From an uncultured Candidatus Saccharibacteria bacterium (GTDB lineage Bacteria; Patescibacteriota; Minisyncoccia; Minisyncoccales; GWA2-38-27), in assembly GCA_964571585.1 (NCBI GenBank), contig CAZNBW010000002.1:288-38730 (forward strand): a stretch of DNA of 38,443 bases, written 5' to 3'. Every line of letters starts with the position of its first letter. The first letter of the stretch is position 1. Below, in pieces: positions 19,178 to 32,991 of the stretch. The translations under genes were made by a program, and so were the position numbers. The notes beneath the pieces are model-generated. The model was not told the origin of the DNA and made no database searches. It saw only the letters and a list, made by a program, of their open reading frames with translations.

Positions 19178-19249
19178 GGGGCCATAGCTCAGTTGGTAGA
19201 GTGCCCCGCTTCGGTGGGGAGGTCGGGGGTTCAATTCCCTCTGGCTCCA
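19178..19249 (+). tRNA. tRNA-like gene with alanine acceptor identity (G3:U70, A73) but an aberrant anticodon arm
   Basis: 72 nt. Acceptor ggggcca/tggctcc with G3:U70, D arm gctc-agttggta-gagt, T arm ggggg-ttcaatt-ccctc, all close to canonical tRNA-Ala. The anticodon arm is ccccg-CTTCGG-tgggg, a 5-bp stem with only a 6-nt loop (equivalently a 6-bp stem capped by a UUCG tetraloop). The only 7-nt-loop register (CTTCGGT, anticodon TCG) leaves 3 Watson-Crick pairs. Confidence 0.7.
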
Positions 19250-22736: not shown

Positions 22737-22769
22737 GGGTATGTATAATAATATACATACCCTCTTTTT
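22737..22769 (+). terminator. Rho-independent terminator
   Basis: 11-bp stem gggtatgtata / tatacataccc, loop ataa, then tcttttt. Confidence 0.75.
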
Positions 22770-22827
22770 ATTTCTGTTTATCTCGGGCAAGTTTTTATTT
22801 TACGTTATTTTTGATATAGTGGAAAAC

Positions 22828-22856
22828 TTGACAAAGGTATTTAAAATTGGTAAATT
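22828..22856 (+). promoter_or_regulatory. Promoter TTGACA-17 nt-TAAATT with TGn
   Basis: TTGACA at 22828-22833, tgg-TAAATT at 22848-22856, upstream of the 22926 ORF. Confidence 0.4.
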
Positions 22857-22925
22857 AAAATTAGAACGCTGAGAGTATTTCTTGGCTTTAACAATTAATT
22901 ATTTTAGAAGAGAAAGGAGATAAAA

Positions 22926-23123
22926 ATGAAACTTTTCTTTGGATTGATTTTTGCTTTAATCGGAGTTATTCTTTGCGTAACGATAGTTGGAGCCATAATC
23001 GGAATTCCTTTACTAATCTTGGGAAGCTGGTTAATTTATAGTTGGCGTATCAACAAGCTCCACGATGCTATCAAAAGAGGTATTGTCGACGGGTCCCATG
23101 AGATCGCTCAGAAGAGTATTTGA
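22926..23123 (+). CDS. Small two-TM membrane protein
   Basis: 65 aa. MKLFFGLIFALIGVILCVTIVGAIIGIPLLILGSWLIY.. RBS gaaAGGAGataaaa-ATG. Terminator hairpin at 23165-23196 (aaagtgaat...attcacttt + T run). Confidence 0.6.
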   Translation: MKLFFGLIFALIGVILCVTIVGAIIGIPLLILGSWLIYSWRINKLHDAIKRGIVDGSHEIAQKSI

Positions 23124-23214
23124 TTACAAGTTTCAAGGTAGGGCAAACCCATAAATTAATGGGAAAAGTGAATGGATCAGTTCTATTCACTTTTTTATTA
23201 TATAGAGATTTGCT

Positions 23215-23398
23215 TTTTGTTTTTGGGTTGTTTTTGTTTTAAGGATATTTAAGGATATTTTTTACGGCACAATATTAGGAGGCGACGCTTCCTAAGTCTT
23301 GCCTCCTAATTTCTATGTAATAAGCCGGGCTTATCACATAGATTAAACCAGGCTTAGCGCGAATCTTATGCTTGCCTCAGGCAAGTTTTTGTTTTAAG
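23215..23398 (+). repeat. 184-bp direct repeat, copy 1 (identical to 29046..29229)
   Basis: Base-by-base comparison shows identity with copy 2 at an offset of 5831 nt. Contains tandem aaggatattt x2, hairpins ttaggaggc..gcctcctaa and ctatgtaataagcc-g-ggcttatcacatag, and a terminal terminator-like cttgcc-tca-ggcaag+T5. Confidence 0.9.
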
Positions 23399-23676
23399 CT
23401 CATTTTTAAGGCGGCAGAAAATTTGACAAGATTATCTAATTATGATTAAAATAAACCAGTGTGTTTTGAATGTACTTTGACAATTTAAAAAATGAAAGGG
23501 AAACAGAAAAAAGGCAGTACGTATGTTTTAGATATACTAGAGACTAAAAAGATGCAAAAGAGGATCGTTTATTTGTAGCGTCGCATTGGAATATCTATTG
23601 CGTTTTACAAATTTGTTGTAATTGGAACCATCCAAATTAGTACCAGCAAGGTACAAATATAAAAGGAGATAGTATC

Positions 23677-24729
23677 ATGAAAATCAGAGTTGCTATAGTC
23701 GGCGTGGGAAATTGTGCCAGTTCATTTCTTCAAGGTATTGAATATTATAAAAATGTTGATGAAAATTCTCCTCCGGTGCCGGGATTGATGCACAGTAATC
23801 TTGGAGGATATCTTATTCGCGACATTGAAGTTGTCGCAGCTTTTGATGTAAACAGTAACAAAATTGGCAAGGACATTTCCGAATCCATTTGGATGTCACC
23901 GACGAATTCTCGTAAATTTGCCGATGTTCCAAATAAGAGCATTTTTGTAAGCGCGGGTTTTCTTGGAGACGGGATTGCTCCTCATATGCAGAGCTACTTT
24001 CCACTTCGTGAAGATCCGAAACGTGTCGTTGAGGTAATAAAAAACAGCGGGACAGAAATATTAATTTCATTTCTTCCCGTTGGGTCACAAAAAGCAACTC
24101 GGTTCTATGCTCAGGCTTGTCTTGACTCTAAAGTAGCTTTTATCAATGGCGTTCCAGAGTTTATCGCATCCGATTATGAATGGGCGGAGAAATTTAAACA
24201 AGCAGGAATTCCGTGTGCGGGTGATGATATTCAAAGCCAGGTTGGTGCAACCATTCTTCATCGTGTGCTTGTGAGTCTTGTGCGTGAACGCGGACAGACA
24301 ATAGAAAACTCGTATCAACTTGATATTGGCGGTAATATGGATTTCGATAATCTGACGGACCGTCAGAGGCTTACCTCAAAAAAAATTTCAAAGACCGGTC
24401 CGATTATCTTTGAAGCAGGCACAAAAGATGTTAAGGTTGTTCCGGCGGATTATATTCCCTTTCTTGCCGATAACAAAATTGCTTACATTAATATTAAAGG
24501 AAGACAATTTGGCGATTTTCCTTTTGAAATTGAGCTTAAGATGTCAGTTGAAGACTCTCCAAACAATGCCGGAGTTATGGTTGATGCGGTCCGTGCCATG
24601 AAGCTTTCTCTCGACAGAGGGCTTAGTGGATATCAGGATTGGAGCGCATACTTTTTCAAGCACCCCCTTCATCTTCTTCCATTAGTAAAAGCAAGAAGTG
24701 TAGTAGAAGGTTTTATTAATGGTAAGTAA
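23677..24729 (+). CDS. ino1: myo-Inositol-1-phosphate (inositol-3-phosphate) synthase, short bacterial/archaeal type
   Basis: 350 aa. Colinear with the mycobacterial Ino1 as I recall it: IRVAIVGVGNCASSFLQGIEYY, PGLMH, LPVGS..ATRFYAQACLD..VAFINGVPEFIAS, GDDIQSQVGATILHRVL, GGNMDF.N..DR.RL.SKKISKT, DSPNNAGVMVDAVRA. RBS aaAGGAGatagtatc-ATG. Confidence 0.9.
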   Translation: MKIRVAIVGVGNCASSFLQGIEYYKNVDENSPPVPGLMHSNLGGYLIRDIEVVAAFDVNSNKIGKDISESIWMSPTNSRKFADVPNKSIFVSAGFLGDGIAPHMQSYFPLREDPKRVVEVIKNSGTEILISFLPVGSQKATRFYAQACLDSKVAFINGVPEFIASDYEWAEKFKQAGIPCAGDDIQSQVGATILHRVLVSLVRERGQTIENSYQLDIGGNMDFDNLTDRQRLTSKKISKTGPIIFEAGTKDVKVVPADYIPFLADNKIAYINIKGRQFGDFPFEIELKMSVEDSPNNAGVMVDAVRAMKLSLDRGLSGYQDWSAYFFKHPLHLLPLVKARSVVEGFINGK

Positions 24730-24743
24730 CAAAAAAGTTCATG

Positions 24744-24786
24744 AAAAAAAGGGTAATCACATAAATGTGGTTACCCTTTTTTATTT
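24744..24786. terminator. Bidirectional terminator between convergent ino1 and the minus-strand operon
   Basis: 11-bp stem gggtaatcaca / tgtggttaccc (one G-U), loop taaa, A7 upstream and T6 downstream. Confidence 0.75.
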
Positions 24787-24791
24787 GTTCC

Positions 24792-25466
24792 CTACATGAG
24801 TTTAATTGAATGGTTTGGATTAACTAAATTTACTTGATTTTCTAGTACAATAGTCAGTGGTTCTGTTCCGTAGTTAGTAAGTGTCTGTTTCTCAATATAT
24901 CCGCCAGATTTTTCTGGGATGGCGATGATATCTCTGTTTAGGGTTTTAGAAAGTTTTTGTACTATTTTTTCATCAGAGGTTTTGTAATGGCATGCGATTG
25001 AGAATCCTTTAATGATTTTGAGTCCTACTGCCTCTGAAGAGGTGAGGTTTTTTGCCTCTGTTGTAGTGCGTATGTCTTCGCCGAGAATGATAGCTCCAGC
25101 GCTACCACCATAAAGCGGTATACCCCTTTGAGCCGCTTCACGAAGATAATTCTCAAAACCTGATTCGCGGATTTCTTTAAGAAGTTTTATCGTGTTGCCT
25201 CCGCCGATGTATACACCAGCAATATTGTTTACTTTATGGCGTGGATTAAGATCTTCCCACATTTCAATGGTCACAACGCCGAGTGGAGTCATGGATGAGC
25301 GAAACCATTTTAAGCAAGATTGGTACGGTTTAGAACGTATAGCGTTCGGAATATATACAAGAGGTTTTGCAAGGTTCAGTTTTTTAACGAATTGTTCGTC
25401 AAGAAGCTTCGAGTCTTTCTCGTCTCCACCTCCTGCCAGAAAAATATGTGTAGTTTTTCTATTCAT
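24792..25466 (-). CDS. Peptidase S51 (dipeptidase E/cyanophycinase-like, class I GATase-like fold) family protein
   Basis: ..HIFLAGGG.., VYIGGGNT, PLYGGSAGAIILG (nucleophile-elbow Ser). I prefer the ATG at 25466 (AAGGAG 6 nt upstream; ATGA overlap with the upstream stop) to the track start at 25490. Confidence 0.75.
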   Translation of the reverse strand: MNRKTTHIFLAGGGDEKDSKLLDEQFVKKLNLAKPLVYIPNAIRSKPYQSCLKWFRSSMTPLGVVTIEMWEDLNPRHKVNNIAGVYIGGGNTIKLLKEIRESGFENYLREAAQRGIPLYGGSAGAIILGEDIRTTTEAKNLTSSEAVGLKIIKGFSIACHYKTSDEKIVQKLSKTLNRDIIAIPEKSGGYIEKQTLTNYGTEPLTIVLENQVNLVNPNHSIKLM

Positions 25467-26638
25467 TTTATTCTCCTTTTGATTTTCCATACCCGTGTTA
25501 TGGGAATAACTTTTTTCTTTATTGCTTTACGTAGAAATTCTTCGTGACTTTGTTCAAATGATTCATCAATTCTCAAGACACGGTTGGCTTCAAGATTAAA
25601 ATCCCGATTTACTTCTCGCCAAATCACAGAATACGTATGTTCTTGTGATACTATGAGATCTGTAAAGGATGACCATTGTTTATGGTAATAACGTACGAGC
25701 TCATAGAGATTAAGACATTGTGCTTCTTCCATAATTAATCTAATCATGGTGCGGAGTTTTGATCCTTGATTTTTGTGATTAGGCACAACATCGGATCCTG
25801 CCATTAGTGTCGCCGTCCGGATTGCATCAAGTGTCACTCTTTTATGTATTATAACACACGAGAGCGGCCCGATGCTATCAAAATAGGAAGGGGACTTGTT
25901 TATAGCCCATATAAGACGTTCAAATCCTACGCCGATATCGCTCAAAGTTGCTACGGTATTGAATGGTTGAGGTATGTTGAAGAAGAAATTCGCAACACCA
26001 ATTTCCAGTCCGCCGTAGTTTATTTTGATCATCTCTGATGTTACTATGCGCCCGGTCCAATCATTATCGGCACGTTTAACCTTAAGACAAAGACCACTAA
26101 CATAAAGACCAAGATTTGAGAATAAATTTAACCAATGGTCTAGCGTGTTGAAATGGTCTTTTATCGTGGCATTCCAACATTCTGTTGCGCTATGTATGAA
26201 CGATGTGGAAGCACCATCAATCGTATCAACGAAGTCGATACCTTGCAATCGGATAACTGGTTGAAGCATTGAACATTGTTGTTGGTCGTCCTTTAAAGAT
26301 TTGCCATAGATTAGATCATCATAGATTTGACCAGCAGTGCTCGCGAAGAGAGTCCGTTCGTCGTTGCGAATAATTGCAATGGGTGTTTCTAGTTGATATC
26401 CTTGCGCAGGAAAGAATTTACGGAAAATTTCTGCGCATTCTTTTAGTTCAAGATATAACCTGGGGGCAGGAATATTAAGAAATTGGTAGCTGTTCGCACA
26501 ACTATATGAACCACAATGTGGTAAATCTCGTTTTGTGTAGTATTCCTCAAAACAAACGGGACACCGTTTTAGTTGCCAGTTTCGGCTGGCGAAAAAGTCA
26601 TTGCGTGCGGCGATTATAACGGAATATAGTTCTTTCAT
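25463..26638 (-). CDS. Stand-alone alanyl-tRNA-synthetase catalytic-core paralogue with N-terminal Cys4 zinc-ribbon-like segment; no editing or C-Ala domains
   Basis: Colinear with the E. coli AlaRS N-terminal domain as I recall it. FRKFFPAQGYQLETPIAIIRNDERTLFASTAGQIYDDLIYG vs [41 protein letters not shown]. QPVIR vs QRCVR. LEIGVANFFFN vs IEIWNIVFMQFN. LSDIGVGFERLIWAI vs SVDTGMGLERIAAVL. LDAIRTATLMAGSDVVPNHKNQGSKLRTMIRLI vs [35 protein letters not shown]. N-terminus has CPVC..x14..HCGSYSC. The ATG at 26638 has AAGGAG 8 nt upstream; the track start is a TTG at 26656. Confidence 0.75.
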   Translation of the reverse strand: MKELYSVIIAARNDFFASRNWQLKRCPVCFEEYYTKRDLPHCGSYSCANSYQFLNIPAPRLYLELKECAEIFRKFFPAQGYQLETPIAIIRNDERTLFASTAGQIYDDLIYGKSLKDDQQQCSMLQPVIRLQGIDFVDTIDGASTSFIHSATECWNATIKDHFNTLDHWLNLFSNLGLYVSGLCLKVKRADNDWTGRIVTSEMIKINYGGLEIGVANFFFNIPQPFNTVATLSDIGVGFERLIWAINKSPSYFDSIGPLSCVIIHKRVTLDAIRTATLMAGSDVVPNHKNQGSKLRTMIRLIMEEAQCLNLYELVRYYHKQWSSFTDLIVSQEHTYSVIWREVNRDFNLEANRVLRIDESFEQSHEEFLRKAIKKKVIPITRVWKIKRRIK

Positions 26639-26652
26639 TTTACATTCTCCTT

Positions 26653-27876
26653 TCAATAAAGCTTGATGGTTTTTGTCAGTAATTCTTCTGTAATTTTTGG
26701 AATTCGTTCCAGCTCTTCTTTTGTTATCCGCATAATAGTTTTCTCGTCGTATTTATTAGCGATGCGGACAATTGTTTGCCATGGTTTAGTTAGCAGTTGA
26801 CCGGCTTGGCTAATTAGCAATACTTCGCAAGCGCTTTGTGTCTCTTGGTAGATTCGTTTCGCTATTTTATGCGCTGCAACATTGTATAACTTGCCAGTAT
26901 AATATTTTGGATTTTTACCACACGCACCTTCAAGATTTATCGGCCTAAGTGGCGTAATTAGACCATTGATCCGATTGCCGCGGCCGACAATTCCTTCATC
27001 ACCGGACTCAATTGATGAACCTATGGCAGTAAGGTATACATCGTTTCGTGTAAAATCATCTCTTGTATTAAGCCAAAGAGTTATTTCTGTCTCGGGGAGA
27101 AGTACACTTAGTCTGTTTTCAATCAATACTCTTGTCTCTGCGAGATTTTCTCGATAAACATCAATCGATTGAACATATTGGGCAATCTGTGGTAAACAGA
27201 TGGTTATTCCGCATTGATGCCCGATTTTTGTTGCCATGATCTTTATATCGGTTCCGAGCCAAGGATATTTTTGTTTAGTGAGGACGGAATTAAGTTCTTC
27301 TTCAATCTTGAGTACCATTTGTTCAAGTGGAGATAGTGGAGCATATCCACATCCTATAGAAGTATCATTATTGAGAAGACGGTCGTATCCTTTCACTTCA
27401 CTGATATTTCGTGGTGTAAAAAGATGAGCACGAGAACCAGTGCTCTGCTTAGTTTTTCCGGGGCCGCTTGCGCTACTAACAAACCAGTGTGTCTTTATAT
27501 CTTGTTTAGAATTGATAAGGTCTCCGAACATTTTGGAAAAAAAGTTCCTGGTTTCTAGTTCAAGCAGGTCGCGCACGGGAATTTTTTCATTAGCAAAAGA
27601 TACCGAAGCGCGACCGTTGAGAATTACTCGAATAGGACTTGTAATTTTTCCTTTGCCGAAATCAACTTCCGTAGTGCCACCAAGCACCGATACTTTGTCG
27701 AAGTTATGGTGCATTATAGCTCCGAAATGATTCTGTGTATAACGTGAGTACGCCACAGATAAGTTTTCAGCTAATGCATCAGCGATAGTATCGGGATGTC
27801 CAATGCCTTTTCGTTCAATAACTTCAATTTTTAGTTCGTCTAATTGAGGGGTGTGTATTATATTCAGACTTTTCAT
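26653..27876 (-). CDS. Archaeal-type S-adenosylmethionine synthetase (MAT, AdoMet_Synthase family) homologue, divergent
   Basis: 407 aa. VIERKGIGHPDTIAD, HHNFDKVSVLGG, NDTSIGCGYAPLSPLEQMVL, GTDIKIM, VYLTAIGSSIESGDEGIVGRGNRINGLITPLRPINLEGACGKNP..GKLYNVAAHKIA are colinear with the M. jannaschii-type MAT as I recall it. There is a distinct insert (SSASGPGKTKQSTGSRAHLFTPRNISEVKGYDRL) where the archaeal enzyme has IGQGS.DL. RBS aAAGGAGaaaaa-ATG. Confidence 0.8.
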   Translation of the reverse strand: MKSLNIIHTPQLDELKIEVIERKGIGHPDTIADALAENLSVAYSRYTQNHFGAIMHHNFDKVSVLGGTTEVDFGKGKITSPIRVILNGRASVSFANEKIPVRDLLELETRNFFSKMFGDLINSKQDIKTHWFVSSASGPGKTKQSTGSRAHLFTPRNISEVKGYDRLLNNDTSIGCGYAPLSPLEQMVLKIEEELNSVLTKQKYPWLGTDIKIMATKIGHQCGITICLPQIAQYVQSIDVYRENLAETRVLIENRLSVLLPETEITLWLNTRDDFTRNDVYLTAIGSSIESGDEGIVGRGNRINGLITPLRPINLEGACGKNPKYYTGKLYNVAAHKIAKRIYQETQSACEVLLISQAGQLLTKPWQTIVRIANKYDEKTIMRITKEELERIPKITEELLTKTIKLY

Positions 27877-28048
27877 TTTTTCTCCTTTTGAACATAGATT
27901 TAATTTTCAATGAACTTTTTGTTCTTTAAGATTATCCCAAAGAATATAATAGTTTAACACTTATATGTTTTTTTGTAAAGCAATTTTAAGTAATTTATTC
28001 TTAGGCAAGCTTTTATTCTGAGACCGTTTTCAAGGTATAATTAAGCAG

Positions 28049-28318
28049 TATGAAATTAAAGATTAATCCATATAACAAAAAGGTTAAAAAAGTTTCAAAA
28101 AGAAAAAGACAGAATATTAAAAGCTATTGGCAATTTTGAAATTCATCATATTGGAAGTACAGCGGTGCCTGGTTTAGGGGGTAAGGGAACTGTAGATATA
28201 TTAATTGGCGTAGATAATTGGAAACAAACAAAGGAAACTATCGAGAAATTAAAAAAGATTGGCTTTTTTCACTTTCATCCAAAAGAAAAAGGCAGAATGT
28301 TATTTTGTGTAAAGCCAG
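28049..28318 (+). pseudogene. GrpB/UPF0157-family gene remnant, frameshifted and 3'-truncated
   Basis: ATG at 28049 gives MKLKINPYNKK.. and then hits a stop. The family-typical ..KFQKEKDRILKAIGNFEIHHIGSTAVPGLGGKGTVDILIGVDNW.. continues in another frame after the A-runs at ~28075-28095. Homology ends after ..HFHPKEKGRMLF where the hairpin repeat begins, so roughly half of a normal GrpB protein is missing. Confidence 0.7.
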
Positions 28319-28354
28319 TTATTTTGTGTGAAGCCAGGCTTCACACAAGTTTTT
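28299..28354 (+). repeat. Hairpin repeat family, copy A (partial 5' half plus full palindrome)
   Basis: gttattttgtgtaaagccag followed by ttattttgtgtgaagcc-a-ggcttcacacaa + gttttt. The 12-bp perfect stem spans 28324-28348. Related to the copy at 28989-29020. Confidence 0.8.
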
Positions 28355-28363
28355 AATTGTTAG

Positions 28364-28945
28364 TTATTTTCTAGATAAAACAAAAATCCAGTTCATTTCA
28401 CTGAAAGAAAATACTTCATAGTACAATATATTAAAGCCAGTATTATTTAAATAATTCTTTAACTCCCTTTTTTTAAACATAGAGAAAATTCTAGTATCAT
28501 TTTTATTCTTTTTTCTATTCTGATTTTCCGGGACTATTATCGCGAGGATGCCGTTTTTCTTTAATATTCTCCTAAAATCCAAAAGTGTGTTTGGTAAATC
28601 AGATTTATCAATATGAGTAAATGCAGAAGAACACCATATACCGTCGAATGATTTTTCATTGAACTTTAAATCAAGAAAGTCTGCTATTTCGAATTTTCCT
28701 TTACGATTTTTCTTGGCGAAATCTACCATTTTTTTTGATAAGTCAATTCCCAAACAATCTAATCCTTTTTTTGTTAAATAATCAGTATCATGACCAGAAC
28801 CACAGGCAATGTCAAGAACTTTTTTCCCTGGAAGTAATTTGATGAATCTATTAATTTTATCCCCTAAAACAACAGAACCATTTTTAGTATATTCTTTAAT
28901 ATATTTATCGTAAAATTCTATAGTTTTTTTTGTATATTGTTTCAT
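28364..28945 (-). CDS. Class I SAM-dependent methyltransferase
   Basis: Motif I VLDIACGSGHDTDYL, DLSKKM, FDGIWCSSAFTHI. AT-rich, with no RBS upstream, unlike its neighbours in this segment. Confidence 0.8.
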   Translation of the reverse strand: MKQYTKKTIEFYDKYIKEYTKNGSVVLGDKINRFIKLLPGKKVLDIACGSGHDTDYLTKKGLDCLGIDLSKKMVDFAKKNRKGKFEIADFLDLKFNEKSFDGIWCSSAFTHIDKSDLPNTLLDFRRILKKNGILAIIVPENQNRKKNKNDTRIFSMFKKRELKNYLNNTGFNILYYEVFSFSEMNWIFVLSRK

Positions 28946-28988
28946 CTATTTTTATTTATTATAACATGGTAAAAATAAAAAGAGCAGT

Positions 28989-29045
28989 TGTTATTTTGTG
29001 TAAAGCCAGGCTTTACACAAATCTTGTGCTTGCCTTGGGCAAGTC
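28989..29045 (+). repeat. Hairpin repeat family, copy B, plus a terminator-like hairpin
   Basis: gttattttgtgtaaagcc-a-ggctttacacaa (stem 28996-29020), then cttgcc-ttg-ggcaag + tctttt (29029-29049). The latter resembles the cttgcc-tca-ggcaag+T5 at the end of the 184-bp repeat; a partial copy (ctcgggcaagttttt) lies at ~22781-22795. Confidence 0.8.
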
Positions 29046-29229
29046 TTTTGTTTTTGGGTTGTTTTTGTTTTAAGGATATTTAAGGATATTTTTTACGGCA
29101 CAATATTAGGAGGCGACGCTTCCTAAGTCTTGCCTCCTAATTTCTATGTAATAAGCCGGGCTTATCACATAGATTAAACCAGGCTTAGCGCGAATCTTAT
29201 GCTTGCCTCAGGCAAGTTTTTGTTTTAAG
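29046..29229 (+). repeat. 184-bp direct repeat, copy 2 (identical to 23215..23398)
   Basis: See copy 1. After copy 1 there is a 12-nt insert (ctcatttttaag) before the shared gcgg. The motif aagggaaacagaaaaa recurs downstream of both copies (about 23505 and 29259). Confidence 0.9.
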
Positions 29230-29349
29230 GCGGAATGTTTTAGGTCAGAATTAGATTAAAGGGAAACAGAAAAATAAATAACTTTGTTTTATAACGAAAT
29301 CCATATATAATAGATATATAGGAATAAGAAGCAAAGCGCGGAAAAGGTA

Positions 29350-29377
29350 TTGCCAAAATATATATTTATGGTATAAT
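29350..29377 (+). promoter_or_regulatory. Promoter TTGCCA-16 nt-TGgTATAAT
   Basis: TTGCCA at 29350-29355, TG at 29369-29370, TATAAT at 29372-29377, 23 nt before the coaC ATG. Confidence 0.5.
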
Positions 29378-29400
29378 AAAGTATAATTTAAATAAAAGCC

Positions 29401-29949
29401 ATGAAAAACAAAAAAGTTTTAATAGGCGTAACAGCAGGAATAGCTATATATAAAGCATGTAGTTTGGTTCGGATGTTTATCAAAAATGGTGCTGAGGTTA
29501 AAGTAGTAATGACTGATTCTGCTACTAAGTTTATCTCTCCCATTGTATTCCAGTCTTTATCTGGGAATACGGTTTATGTAGAAATGTTTAAACCAATTAG
29601 GGAGAATGCAGTTAATCATATTAATCTAGCTACTTGGTGTGATATATTTATTTTAGCACCAGCTAGCGCAAATACTATTGGGAAGATAGTTAATGGTATT
29701 GCTGATAATCTTTTAACCACCACAATTATGGCCTTGCCTAAAGATAAACCAGTTGTTATCGCTCCTGCCATGAATACAAATATGTGGGAGAATGAATTTG
29801 TTAAGAAAAATATGGACATTATTAAAAATGTAGATAATTACTATTTAATTGAACCAGAAACTGGTTTATTGGCAGAAGGACATGAGGGAAAAGGAATCTT
29901 AGCTGATATTACTAAGATATTCGATAAATCAAAAGAACTTATAAAATAA
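29401..29949 (+). CDS. coaC: Phosphopantothenoylcysteine decarboxylase (flavoprotein, CoaC-type)
   Basis: KKVLIGVTAGIAIYKACSLVR, ..VVMTDSATKFISP.., APASANTIGKIVNGIADNLLTTT, APAMN..MW. Confidence 0.85.
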   Translation: MKNKKVLIGVTAGIAIYKACSLVRMFIKNGAEVKVVMTDSATKFISPIVFQSLSGNTVYVEMFKPIRENAVNHINLATWCDIFILAPASANTIGKIVNGIADNLLTTTIMALPKDKPVVIAPAMNTNMWENEFVKKNMDIIKNVDNYYLIEPETGLLAEGHEGKGILADITKIFDKSKELIK

Positions 29950-29952
29950 AAA

Positions 29953-30738
29953 ATGTATCAAAATCAAGAATACAATTTAAATGAATTCTTGCAAGAAACA
30001 AGATATTGCGATTGCAGCGAACCAATAATTAAAAGTTTGGCCCATGAATTGACTAAGCATTGTTCTTCGGACACAGAAAAAGCTGTAGTTTTATTTGAAT
30101 ATGTTCGCGATAATATTTTATATGGATTCGGAGAATGGGGTAAAAAAGCATCTACTATTTTAGCGGAGAGAAAGGGAATGTGTACAAATAGTGCGAATTT
30201 GTTGATCGCTCTTCTCAGGGCAATTGGAATACCAAGCGGTTATGGAATTATGAGAGTTGATACCAGAGAATACTTTGGTCCTATTATGCTCCCCATGTTT
30301 AAAGATTTAGTTTCTGAGCAATCCGTACATATATATACGTATGTTTATCTTGGTGGTAGATGGGTGAAATGTGATCCTTCTGTAGACAAAGTTTTTTCAG
30401 AAAAAACCAGTTATTTTAGTCCTACAACAGAGTTGTTGATGTGGAACGGGTTAAATGATAGGGTTGATAATATAGATACTGAATATATATACAGCGATTC
30501 AGGCCCTTTTTCAAATATCGACGATAAACTCGACAAAAAACCTAGAAGTAGCACCAAAAATGCCATTAAAATAGGTAATCTATACTTAGATTTTTTAAGA
30601 GAAAATACTGTAAAAATTGACAATACAGAACAGTTGCAACCGATGTTCTTGTCTTGGCTAAAAAATAGATATCCTATTTCTTACATGTCTTTTTTACCAA
30701 TAATCAAATTCAAATCTCTTGTCAGAAAAACTTCTTAA
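29953..30738 (+). CDS. Transglutaminase-like cysteine peptidase superfamily protein
   Basis: Core KGMCTNSANLLIALLRAIGIPSGYG (Cys), HIYTYVYLGGRWVKCDPS (His/Asp). Confidence 0.75.
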   Translation: MYQNQEYNLNEFLQETRYCDCSEPIIKSLAHELTKHCSSDTEKAVVLFEYVRDNILYGFGEWGKKASTILAERKGMCTNSANLLIALLRAIGIPSGYGIMRVDTREYFGPIMLPMFKDLVSEQSVHIYTYVYLGGRWVKCDPSVDKVFSEKTSYFSPTTELLMWNGLNDRVDNIDTEYIYSDSGPFSNIDDKLDKKPRSSTKNAIKIGNLYLDFLRENTVKIDNTEQLQPMFLSWLKNRYPISYMSFLPIIKFKSLVRKTS

Positions 30739-31378
30739 AAATAAAAAAATATTGATAACCGGAGGGCCCGTTTGGGTTCCTGTTGATAAGGTTAGGGTAA
30801 TGACAAATATATTTGGAGGTTCGTTAGGATTAGAAATAGCTAAAAAGGCAGCTAAAATTGGAGGAGCTGTTGTTTTTTTATTAGGTCCTAGTAAAATAGA
30901 TATTCCTCAGAATCTCCCTAAAAATTTAAAAATAATCAGATTTAAATACTTTGACGATCTTTTAAGTTTGATGAAAAAGAATATATCAGATAGATGTGAT
31001 ATTGTTATTCATTCTGCAGCAGTTCCCGACTATGCTCCTAAAAAAATCTATAATGGTAAAATAAAATCAGGGAAGAAAGAATTAATTATTAGCTTTAAGC
31101 CTACAATTAAAATAGTTGACCTAATAAAAAAGTGGAATTCTTCTGTATTTTTGGTAAAATTTAAATTAGAGGTAGGCTTAAGCAAAAAAGAATTAATAGA
31201 TACTGCTTATAAGAGCATGATTTTTTCTAAAGCAGATTTGATGGTAGCCAACGATCTTAAAAATACATCTGGTAAACACGAAGCTTTTATTATAGATAAA
31301 AACAAAGATATAATTGAGTGCGAAGGAAAGAATATAATCGCCCAAAAGTTACTTCATAAAATAAAAAATCTGGTATGA
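30719..31378 (+). CDS. coaB: Phosphopantothenate--cysteine ligase (CoaB-type)
   Basis: KKILITGGPVWVPVDKVRVMTNIFGGSLGLEIAKKA, HSAAVPDY, GKIKSG. TTG start per the track; overlaps the previous gene by 20 nt. Confidence 0.8.
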   Translation: MSEKLLKNKKILITGGPVWVPVDKVRVMTNIFGGSLGLEIAKKAAKIGGAVVFLLGPSKIDIPQNLPKNLKIIRFKYFDDLLSLMKKNISDRCDIVIHSAAVPDYAPKKIYNGKIKSGKKELIISFKPTIKIVDLIKKWNSSVFLVKFKLEVGLSKKELIDTAYKSMIFSKADLMVANDLKNTSGKHEAFIIDKNKDIIECEGKNIIAQKLLHKIKNLV

Positions 31379-32991
31379 GTTTATTTGCTATTTCATGTCT
31401 TGTTACAGCTGTTTTAACAGCTATACTTGGATTTTTAACTTTATTTAAGAATCCTAGCGATAGAATAAATCGTTCCTGGTTTTTGGTTAGTTGTGCTGTT
31501 TTTCTTTGGACAATTGGTCTTTTCGGAACGGTTGTTGCTAATAGTTCTTGGATTGCACTTTTTTTTCAGAGAGTTTTATATATAGGCACAGTCCTTATCC
31601 CAATATTATTTTTCAACTTCGCCATCATTATTTTAAAAAGAGAGGGACGCGAAAGGAGAGTTTTTTATGGTGGTTGTGTTTTAGCAATAGTATTTCTCAT
31701 TCTGCTATTTAGTAAGCATTTTATCGATATAATTCCAGAAAGAACAAGCTTGAATTATTGGCCAGTTGAGACTGGTCTTTTTTATTGGTCATTTTTATTC
31801 TATTTCGCTCTCTATATGATTTATTCTCTTGTTATGCTGAAAACTGATTCTAAAAAATACGGTGGAGTTTACCAAAAGCAAATCCAATTTGTATATTATG
31901 CCGTACTTATTGGTTTTGCAGGAGGTTCTACAAATTTTTTACTAGATTTTGATCTTAATATTTATCCAGTGGGTAATCTTTTTGTTTCTCTTTATGTAGT
32001 ATTAGTAGCGTACGCAGTTTTCAAGTATCAACTAATGAATATAAGATTTATTGCCACAGAGATTTTAGTTGGACTAGTGAGTGTTGTTTTGTTAGTTGAT
32101 CTGTTTGTTTCTCAAAACTCTCTGCCAATATTATTATTAAAGTTAATAATTCTGATCGTTTTTGTATATTTAGGAATTTCTCTGGTGAAAAGTGTTTTAA
32201 GAGAGGTAAAACAACGCGAAGAAATGGAGATATTAACAAAGAAAGTACAAAAAGCTTATGAGGTGGAAAAGAAGGCGACCAGAGAGCTAAAGAGGTTGGG
32301 AGAGGTGAAGAATCAGTTTATTATGGCCTCCCAACACCATTTAAGAACTCCTTTAACTTCTATGAGAGGATATATTGATTTGGTTCTTACTGGTTCTTAT
32401 GGCAAGGTTCCTATAAAAATTAAAGAGGCTTTAACTAAATTTGAAACATCAATAAAGAGGTTGAATAGGGTCATTAATGAATTCTTGGATATTACTCAAT
32501 TTCAACTTGGCAAAGAAGTGGTAACTTTGAAGGAAGGAGTTGATTTGACGCCCATTTTTCAAGAAGTCCAGGAAGAACTAGGGTATGAGGCAAAAGCCAG
32601 GGGTATCAATCTTGAGTTTAAAATACCAAGTAACATTCCTAAGATTAAAGCAGACTCAGAAAAGCTTAAGATAGGAATGTTTAATATAGTAGATAATGCT
32701 ATAAAGTATACTCAGGAGGGTAGTGTTTCTGTTGATCTTTCTGCTACAGATCATAAATTATTAATTAAGGTAAAAGATACAGGAGTAGGGATAGCGAAGG
32801 AGAACCAAAAAGAGTTGTTTAATAAGTTGTTTGAAAGGGGTCAGGACGCAATGAAGGTTCACGGTACAGGCAAGGGCATAGGTCTGTTTATAACCTCACA
32901 TATTATTAAAGCCCATAACGGCAGAATTTGGGCAGAATCTGAGGGACGTGGAAAAGGAAGTACGTTCTTTATAGAATTACCTATAAAATAA
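31375..32991 (+). CDS. Sensor histidine kinase with N-terminal multi-TM (7TM-type) sensor domain
   Basis: About 8 TM helices. H-box SQHHLRTPLTSMRGYIDL, N box NIVDNAIKYT, G1 DTGVGI, G2 GTGKGIGL. ATGA overlap with coaB. Confidence 0.9.
   Translation: MSLFAISCLVTAVLTAILGFLTLFKNPSDRINRSWFLVSCAVFLWTIGLFGTVVANSSWIALFFQRVLYIGTVLIPILFFNFAIIILKREGRERRVFYGGCVLAIVFLILLFSKHFIDIIPERTSLNYWPVETGLFYWSFLFYFALYMIYSLVMLKTDSKKYGGVYQKQIQFVYYAVLIGFAGGSTNFLLDFDLNIYPVGNLFVSLYVVLVAYAVFKYQLMNIRFIATEILVGLVSVVLLVDLFVSQNSLPILLLKLIILIVFVYLGISLVKSVLREVKQREEMEILTKKVQKAYEVEKKATRELKRLGEVKNQFIMASQHHLRTPLTSMRGYIDLVLTGSYGKVPIKIKEALTKFETSIKRLNRVINEFLDITQFQLGKEVVTLKEGVDLTPIFQEVQEELGYEAKARGINLEFKIPSNIPKIKADSEKLKIGMFNIVDNAIKYTQEGSVSVDLSATDHKLLIKVKDTGVGIAKENQKELFNKLFERGQDAMKVHGTGKGIGLFITSHIIKAHNGRIWAESEGRGKGSTFFIELPIK

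Follow-up and report, generated by a model that had tools for sequence, protein, structure and literature searches.

A perfect 184-nt direct repeat upstream of coaC in a Saccharibacteria genome points to an older duplication, probably re-homogenised by gene conversion

Results

Two identical copies of a non-coding unit bracket ino1 and its neighbours

We analysed a 38,443-nt stretch of DNA (the window) from an uncultured Candidatus Saccharibacteria bacterium, in which two directly repeated copies of a 184-nt non-coding unit bracket a set of genes that begins with ino1 and lies next to coaC. The window is C2:288-38730, that is, part of one contig in a metagenome-assembled genome (MAG) of 70 contigs and 580,362 bp with an estimated completeness of 93%. 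Its small size, its bacterial promoters (TTGACA/TATAAT) and the labels on its nearest homologues indicate a member of the candidate phyla radiation (CPR, Patescibacteria). A set of 60 related genomes served for comparison. The repeat and its continuation consist of the following features.

23215-23398, + strand: repeat copy 1 (U1), 184 nt, non-coding; a 175-nt variant in sibling assemblies
29046-29229, + strand: repeat copy 2 (U2), same as U1 in the window assembly; its last ~19 nt are orthologous to the sister-species contig L050
23399-23511, + strand: ext', the degenerate continuation after U1, with TTTTAAGGCGG, GAATGT and AAAGGGAAACAGAAAAA and with 12-nt and ~55-nt insertions
29230-29274, + strand: ext, native coaC-upstream DNA after U2, GCGG-AATGT...AAAGGGAAACAGAAAAA; orthologous to L050, paralogous to ext'
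23317-23382, no strand: putative minimal gene-conversion tract, holding all five differences from the sibling haplotype

Repeat finding and direct reading agreed that U1 and U2 are identical at 184/184 nt with a start-to-start distance of 5831, and the bases adjacent to the repeat differ on either side (CT at 23213-14 vs TC at 29044-45; C at 23399 vs G at 29230). A 184-base match cannot be due to chance. No open reading frame (ORF) of at least 50 aa overlaps either copy. An earlier note on this DNA had described perfect 184-bp non-coding repeats at an offset of 5831, enclosing ino1, a three-gene operon, a GrpB remnant and a methyltransferase; the repeats are as it described them, and its gene list was borne out by Pfam. 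The same note had proposed counting the repeat throughout the genome, and this count gave exactly 2 copies of the full unit, the sole other matches being to a 19-23 nt hairpin core, so that the unit is not a generic intergenic repeat. Its concern that the second copy could be an assembly artefact is answered by an independent assembly, L022, which has copy 1 and reaches 100 nt into copy 2.

Sibling assemblies carry a 175-nt variant of copy 1

Same-strain assemblies from four other samples were found by exact-protein look-ups. L017, L018, L020 and L021 are 100% identical to the window. L022 (ERZ27248922; a k141-named contig of 6392 bp) corresponds to 22745-29145 and thus covers the left flank, copy 1, all of the cargo and the beginning of copy 2; it differs from the window in five clustered places only, all within copy 1 (23317 G>A, 23335 C>T, a 9-nt deletion of 23359-23367, 23369 T>C and 23382 C>T). 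L023 (ERZ27248965) and L024 (JGI 3300028193) carry the same 175-nt variant of copy 1, L023 differing from the window nowhere else and L024 having one further single-nucleotide polymorphism (SNP) at 22904. In the populations of these three assemblies, copy 1 and copy 2 are therefore 93.5% identical, separated by 4 SNPs and the 9-nt deletion; their first 102 nt are alike, and every difference falls in the next 66 nt. The 184/184 identity is peculiar to the window assembly, while the 175-nt copy 1 is found in three others from three samples.

These three assemblies show the unconverted state of the locus in very close relatives. Five changes confined to 66 nt, on an identical background and with a result equal to the other copy, are the signature of gene conversion. 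This was one of the explanations that the earlier note had offered for the perfect identity, and the clustering of the copy-1 differences in siblings that are otherwise identical (save the extra SNP in L024) speaks for it. No cargo-free or variable locus was seen among the siblings: all three informative contigs (3/3) carry an occupied left junction, and a contig joining the left flank through a single unit to coaC was not found.

The duplication is older than the proposed conversion and derives from coaC-upstream DNA

Past the unit, homology between the two loci runs on in degraded form for ~45 nt, with indels. The insertions in ext' carry a strong ino1 promoter, TTGACA-18-TAAAAT (23423-23452). 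In L050, the closest sister contig (coaC 88% identical in aa; 83% nt identity over 3.8 kb), orthology to the window begins at 29211, in the 3' arm of the U2 terminator, and runs on through ext to coaC and beyond. This comparison shows that the terminator tail and the extension are native coaC-upstream DNA, and that the copy before ino1 is therefore the paralogue. Both ext and ext' have the window-specific state AAAGGGAAACAGAAAAA, where L050 has GAGGGGGAACAGAGAAA; these common derived states, together with the indels, place the duplication after the split from L050 and before the conversion. To judge from these sequences, then, the duplication is older, not recent. The proposal of a recent duplication in the earlier note does not fit, given that the sibling copies are 93.5% identical and the homology past the unit is far more degraded.

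The unit is a mosaic of palindromic hairpins that ends in a terminator

The unit opens with a T-rich head (TTTTGTTTTTGGGTT, then GTTTTTGTTTTAAGG), followed by two tandem copies of AAGGATATTT, hairpin 1, hairpin 2, a degenerate H hairpin and an intrinsic terminator with a T-tail. A 14-15-nt string, GTTTTTGTTTTAAG(G), stands near both unit ends in direct orientation. The parts that could be delimited are as follows.

23274-23310, + strand: hairpin 1, ATTAGGAGGC...GCCTCCTAAT, with a 10-bp perfect outer stem; twin at 29105-29141
23313-23341, + strand: hairpin 2, CTATGTAATAAGCCGGGCTTATCACATAG, a variant palindrome of the AAGCCNGGCTT family, which is found throughout the genome; twin at 29144-29172
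23370-23396, + strand: intrinsic terminator, GCTTGCCTCAGGCAAGT + TTTTTGTTTT, the 3' end of the unit, then AAG; twin begins at 29201
28995-29053, + strand: older, incomplete version of the unit's 3' module, immediately before U2; matches the final 51 nt of the unit at 78% identity

The arms of hairpin 1, taken as 10-mers, have 2 and 3 matches in the genome, both unit copies included, and the lone extra match is GCCTCCTAAT at C51:851. Relatives of hairpin 2 stand at C1:14668 and C37:4378, and its family is abundant: the core AAGCCNGGCTT occurs 39 times in the genome against 0.2 expected, and the 21-mer GTGTRAAGCCNGGCTTYACAC, which belongs to a family of 21-27-nt palindromes, 17 times in 580 kb against 0 in the 60 relatives. 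On these counts the family is species-specific, and it is like repetitive extragenic palindromic (REP) elements. Its copies flank the methyltransferase gene on both sides (28281-28353 and 28972-29025, 82-89%), and the older partial module upstream of U2 is made up of an H hairpin (28995-29021) and a T' terminator hairpin with a T-tail (29028-29044). The locus is thus a nest of terminator and hairpin modules, and the unit itself is a lineage-specific non-coding mosaic of palindromic hairpins with an intrinsic terminator at its end.

Compared with shuffled sequence, the unit folds far more strongly on both of its strands (z = -4.2 and -4.9), because the palindromes of which it is built are generic ones, REP-like as elsewhere in the genome. 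In the 175-nt variant the architecture of the unit is kept (z = -3.9); there the mismatch in the hairpin 2 stem is moved, not added, and one terminator G-C pair becomes G-U. No promoter was called inside the unit, the best candidate found by eye having 7/12 positions, and no Rfam match was found in it: the best matches in the region had E=0.45-4.6, far under the cut-offs, and the gathering score was reached by tRNAs only. A homologue of the unit was found in 0 of the 60 relatives, and the sole match in JGI metagenomes is the same strain. We predict that the unit acts mainly as a terminator or insulator.

Of additional note, sites of the GTGTRAAGCCNGGCTTYACAC family include 28323-28349 and 28995-29021 in the window and C1:40317, C3:34889, C12:56 and 753, and C27:11 and 619 elsewhere. 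A second palindrome subfamily, CTAAGCCWGGCTTAG, often forms inverted doublets, such as the 38-bp perfect palindrome at C3:38132-38169, and several copies of the palindrome family lie at contig ends. Our search of the literature on REP elements or ino1 in CPR bacteria returned nothing relevant.

The bracketed DNA is composite and partly imported

The genes between the repeats and those adjoining them are listed below.

22926-23123, + strand: left neighbour, an ORF of 65 aa that has a terminator-like hairpin of its own at ~23167-23200 (read by eye)
23677-24729, + strand: ino1 (Pfam)
24792-25490, - strand: S51 peptidase-like (Pfam)
25463-26656, - strand: AlaRS-core-like, a weak match (Pfam)
26653-27876, - strand: archaeal-type S-adenosylmethionine (SAM) synthetase family, MAT-like (Pfam)
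23626-27876, no single strand: conserved cluster in which ino1 (+) and the MAT-like/AlaRS-like/S51 operon (-) converge; homologous nucleotide sequence in other MAGs over 23626-27846
28165-28356, + strand: GrpB remnant, weak PF04229, ending in 1.5 H-hairpin copies (28296-28349)
28364-28945, - strand: class I SAM methyltransferase, 27% GC, with H-hairpin repeats on either side
29350-32991, + strand: right neighbour, the coaC promoter (29350-29377) and then the coaC-transglutaminase-coaB-histidine kinase (HK) block

The ino1 cluster has relatives elsewhere. A 5.1-kb contig labelled Bacteroidetes UBA9647 has all four genes at 84/74/72/67% aa identity (ino1/MAT-like/AlaRS-like/S51), and two Saccharibacteria-labelled MAGs have ino1, AlaRS-like and S51 at 57-82% aa; the MAT-like gene is 41% identical in aa in one of these (L039) and missing from the contig of the other. 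These loci are L036:257-5100, L037:7328-10197 and L039:8001-13697. No repeats flank the cluster in the other MAGs. Within the family, ino1 is absent from the 36 other genomes searched, and the 60 relatives hold only 50-54% identical copies, in six other families, the range also of relatives from the same order; the MAT-like gene is found in 4 of the 60. Judged by this distribution the cluster is horizontally acquired; its genes may have passed between CPR lineages recently and may serve a joint pathway.

The remainder of the bracketed DNA looks different. The GC content is 39.8% in the ino1 cluster, 36.4% in the genome, 27% in the methyltransferase and, similarly low, 31.8% in the right flank. 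In L051 and L052 a methyltransferase gene adjoins coaC, and the 5' 335 nt of the window gene are 74.6% identical to it in nt. This contrast in GC and the position of the methyltransferase as a neighbour of coaC in relatives indicate that the bracketed DNA is composite, with a part that looks native. The methyltransferase gene is itself a mosaic: its 5' 335 nt resemble the L051 gene about as closely as the flanks do, the proteins are 51% identical overall, and this pattern points to a recombination breakpoint within the gene.

Pfam scans of the cargo and the neighbouring ORFs found no recombinase or integrase, and the genome's single tyrosine recombinase (PF00589) lies on contig C7. A phage or plasmid origin was considered and rejected: neither hairpin 1 nor the AlaRS-like gene was found on any viral contig, and no plasmid-like relatives were found.

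The surroundings of the coaC-HK block vary among sister species

Of 38 other family genomes a single one has coaC, which made a search for the empty site by family-level synteny unworkable; contigs of sister species (L050-L057) were instead found via coaC homologues. All of them keep the coaC-transglutaminase-coaB-HK block, at 76-83% nt identity to that of the window. In all of these contigs, as in the window (29401-31378), coaC and coaB form two distinct genes, and a transglutaminase-core gene lies between the two. The left neighbours of coaC vary: a Cupin gene and the methyltransferase in L051/L052, a 201-aa gene in L050 and L053, and small ORFs after a non-orthologous NUDIX gene in L055-L057. 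L055 and L056 keep the window's left block (SIMPL, ABC transporter, Gmad2, cyclophilin and a homologue of a 330-aa protein) ~3 kb from coaC, without any of the window cargo. Since their intervening genes differ from those of the window, they give no base-precise empty site; the right boundary can be set precisely, at 29211. The T-tail motif TTTGTTTTG/AAGG marks the start of the conserved sequence in all relatives. L053 (1060-4750) and L051 (1368-5058) share 98.1% identity over the interval that starts 124 nt before coaC and closes with the stop codon of HK. Outside it they are unrelated, and the homology breaks off exactly at the T-tail motif on the coaC side and at that stop codon on the other.

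On the other side, the interval between HK and a response regulator holds 0, 1 or 4 small cassettes among sister strains. Four follow HK in L051:5059-10822 (= L052), encoding CYTH; Exo_endo_phos and radical SAM; nucleotidyltransferase (NTase) and HEPN; and HIT. After each of them stands a direct copy of the HK 3' end, 70-147 nt long and 86-92% identical. In three of the four copies in L051 the outer end is at or near the stop codon, the inner boundary is variable, and the copy closest to HK is the most similar. L054 (3747-4861) has one cassette and an HK fragment, and L055 (13571-13603) has none. As read from these alignments, the HK-edge arrays present the pattern expected of serial insertion-duplication; the varying inner boundaries argue against site-specific recombination. 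The coaC-HK locus is thus a cassette insertion hot spot, and the unit with its extension at the left edge looks like a mirror image of the arrays at the HK edge.

Discussion

Based on our findings, we propose a history of the repeat that we hold to be probable, although far from certain: an older, insertion-associated duplication at the hot spot was followed by divergence of the two copies to 93.5% identity and then by re-homogenisation through gene conversion. A native piece of ~230 nt from upstream of coaC would have been duplicated when accessory DNA entered the hot spot upstream of the coaC-HK block. The likeliest mechanism for this step would be RecA-dependent insertion-duplication, a Campbell-like single crossover that needs no dedicated recombinase; RecA is present in the genome (PF00154, 420 bits, contig C9). 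The two copies would then have diverged, with indels accumulating in the extension, and in the sampled population copy 1 would recently have been overwritten by copy 2 in an intrachromosomal conversion with a tract of at least 66 nt, giving the 184/184 match. The direction from copy 2 to copy 1 is the one that parsimony suggests, and a Campbell-like origin of the repeat is what the analogous arrays of the sister species would lead us to expect.

Several points weigh against this history. Parsimony alone decided between conversion in the window population and import of a diverged tract into the other strains. For the Campbell-like origin the argument is one of analogy with the HK-edge arrays of sister species, and in the window itself no HK fragment follows HK. 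A native-looking methyltransferase lies inside the bracket, and one clean 5.8-kb insertion can therefore not explain everything. Finally, the copy-1 form of the window depends on one assembly and on the way in which de Bruijn assemblers work, and independent assembly coverage of copy 2 extends over its first half only. Regarding the Campbell-type integration that the earlier note had also considered, the part that concerns the origin of the repeat may well stand, in view of the native DNA in the unit and, by analogy, of the HK-edge arrays; the single circular element of 5.8 kb does not fit, because the cargo is composite and recombinase-free and the methyltransferase is a neighbour of coaC in relatives.

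The converted form might be a product of assembly: the true genome would have the 175/184 haplotype, and copy 1 would have been overwritten with the sequence of copy 2 in assembly, scaffolding, bin re-assembly or consensus polishing. We consider this unlikely, although the 184/184 form is confined to the window assembly and the 175-nt copy 1 recurs in three assemblies of the same strain background, produced by two or more pipelines (the contigs being k141 MEGAHIT-named or from JGI). Eight perfect 55-bp contig-end overlaps (seven end-to-end and one end-to-internal) and a 100-N scaffold gap occur in the MAG; we take them to be the signature of a k=55 SPAdes-type assembly, and so short a k copes poorly with near-repeats. 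Collapse of a bubble in such an assembler was the explanation that we first favoured, and we dropped it. At k=33 and at k=55 the two forms stay apart once they have diverged, with zero shared 33- or 55-mers past that point; only 16 nt separate the last difference from unrelated downstream sequence (CTCATTT vs GCGGAAT), so the forms do not make a closed, collapsible bubble. The collapse would also have required 38 chimeric 55-mers (starts 23345-23382) of the window copy 1, which link the tail of the 184-nt form to downstream sequence specific to copy 1 and occur in neither context of the sibling haplotype. To our knowledge, a de Bruijn assembler is unable to create k-mers absent from the reads; these 55-mers should therefore be read-derived, unless later polishing altered the contig. 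Other near-repeats in the MAG were left diverged, one of 407 bp at 96.6% and another of 150 bp at 90.7%. We accordingly take the 184/184 haplotype as real on the k-mer argument, which was drawn from the assemblies. Of additional note, the overlapping ends are C11/C14, C18/C27, C23/C66, C24/C47, C31/C55, C55/C57 and C12/C58, which makes several contigs joinable, and the 100-N gap lies at C11:11497-11596, flanked by a 47-bp repeat.

If the 184/184 form is real, its perfection could also reflect current mobility or selection on the unit. A 5.8-kb segment of cargo plus one repeat might have entered recently as a circle by a single crossover and might still excise or amplify. Direct repeats of 175-184 nt are adequate substrates for the RecA of this genome, analogous repeat-followed cassettes vary between 98%-identical sister strains, and the ends of the sibling contigs (L022 stops 100 nt into copy 2 and L023 begins 2 nt past the first variable site) would fit a branch in the assembly graph. 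Such a segment is nevertheless quite improbable in view of its composite, recombinase-free cargo, with a methyltransferase that is a native neighbour of coaC in relatives, and of the occupied state of every informative sibling contig, with no empty-site contig found. The common haplotype at 93.5% and the degraded extension moreover indicate that integration was not recent, and viral or plasmid-like relatives were not found. We give even less credence to a functional RNA or regulatory module (a small RNA, an insulator or terminator cassette, or an operator-bearing leader) that lies upstream of ino1 and coaC and is kept alike by selection. That both copies stand upstream of a promoter on the same strand, that the unit and its variant fold beyond shuffled sequence with the same architecture, and that the changes in the variant do no more to the stems than move one mismatch and make one G-U pair would all suit such a module. 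The folding is, however, accounted for by generic REP-like palindromes, the two promoters lie at unequal distances from the unit end (~25 vs 120 nt), and the unit has neither an Rfam match nor an internal promoter call. Its two copies offer no covariation evidence, and homologues are lacking in the 60 relatives, in viral contigs and in JGI metagenomes beyond the same strain.

Other candidates were tried and rejected. A tRNA or att site is not supported, there being no tRNA in or beside the unit, and the Rfam scan of the region found no known RNA family. The unit is not a miniature inverted-repeat transposable element (MITE) or part of a composite transposon: it has no terminal inverted repeats, its outer flanks are unrelated (TTGCT vs GCGGA) and form no target-site duplication, and it has no similarity to the IS200/IS605 contigs of the genome. 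The H hairpins show no GTTRRRY cores by eye, and an integron integrase is absent, so that integron-like attC sites were dismissed.

Comparison with known systems places the locus among several of them. It is like cases of ectopic gene conversion in that a patch of perfect identity joins two paralogous copies that are older and diverged, near-identical strains have an unconverted haplotype, and the genome encodes RecA. Unlike in the usual cases, the partners are non-coding terminator and hairpin modules 5.8 kb apart in an ultra-small uncultured genome, and the conversion was deduced from a comparison of metagenome assemblies, not observed in culture. As in Campbell-type insertion-duplication, which is familiar from laboratory mutagenesis with a circular molecule that carries a fragment of the target, an insert lies between direct copies of native target DNA; the HK fragments of sister strains agree with the prediction of that model, their outer end being mostly fixed (3/4 in L051) and their inner end variable. 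It departs from the model in that a circular intermediate was not seen, the bracketed DNA is composite, the window lacks HK fragments and the model does not account for the first duplication event. Genomic islands with att sites at their borders likewise have direct repeats on both sides, imported cargo and an insertion beside a conserved block; unlike them, this locus has no integrase and no tRNA target, and its repeat is diverged and far longer than a typical att core.

Minimal mobile elements (MMEs) are replaced by double crossover in their flanks, which leaves no target duplication. Unlike with MMEs, the edges of the conserved block are duplicated here. The likeness to the MMEs of Neisseria (Saunders & Snyder 2002, PMID 12480877, cited in PMC1538595), and to integration hot spots between conserved genes, lies in the alternative small cassettes, free of mobility genes, that stand between conserved flanks and differ among close strains; cassettes would presumably be exchanged through DNA uptake and homologous recombination.

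Like REP elements and bacterial interspersed mosaic elements (BIMEs), the genome has many short extragenic palindromes, and the unit is, in its sub-elements only, a BIME-like mosaic of a variant palindrome and other hairpins. Unlike in those systems, a RAYT was not identified and the whole 184-nt mosaic has only two copies. The genome does have three PF01797 (Y1 transposase) genes, all of them on short contigs that lack the palindrome and each adjoining a tnpB-like ORF. These IS200/IS605-type pairs lie on C62 (144-1771), C49 (596-2124) and C69 (173-1554); the Y1 proteins are 144-150 aa and the tnpB-like proteins 312-404 aa long, and the contigs are free of AAGCCNGGCTT.

Most likely, then, the locus is a new instance of known processes, an ordinary one caught unusually cleanly, and not a self-mobile element. 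We tentatively raise a wider reading, which we think doubtful at present. In this CPR genus the coaC-HK block could be bordered on both sides by integrase-less cassette arrays, each cassette inserted with a 50-230 nt duplication of the edge (at the left the unit with its extension, at the right the 3' end of HK). A RecA-driven cycle would have the repeats as its scar as well as its substrate: a cassette exits as a circle with one repeat, a relative takes up the circle and re-integrates it at the homologous edge, and conversion keeps the repeats competent for recombination. If this were true, ultra-small bacteria would have a general way of gaining genes that is enzyme-free. Apart from such a cycle, target-derived direct repeats without mobility genes suggest that genes may be gained and lost in CPR bacteria by uptake and homologous recombination alone.

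The main value of the locus is its unusually clear natural before-and-after pair, together with this hint from the neighbourhood at integrase-free gene gain in CPR. The pair would be a clean natural case of intrachromosomal gene conversion in an uncultured ultra-small bacterium, with both haplotypes drawn from public metagenomes, and it means that calls of a perfect repeat in MAGs need to be checked against sibling assemblies. In addition, a metabolic cluster that moves horizontally (ino1, MAT-like, AlaRS-like and S51, also in Saccharibacteria-labelled MAGs) is placed here in a cassette hot spot.

A minor observation concerns a tRNA-like gene at 19178-19249, for which ARAGORN left the anticodon undetermined (a 2-nt 'tc') and the Rfam tRNA model scored 58 bits.

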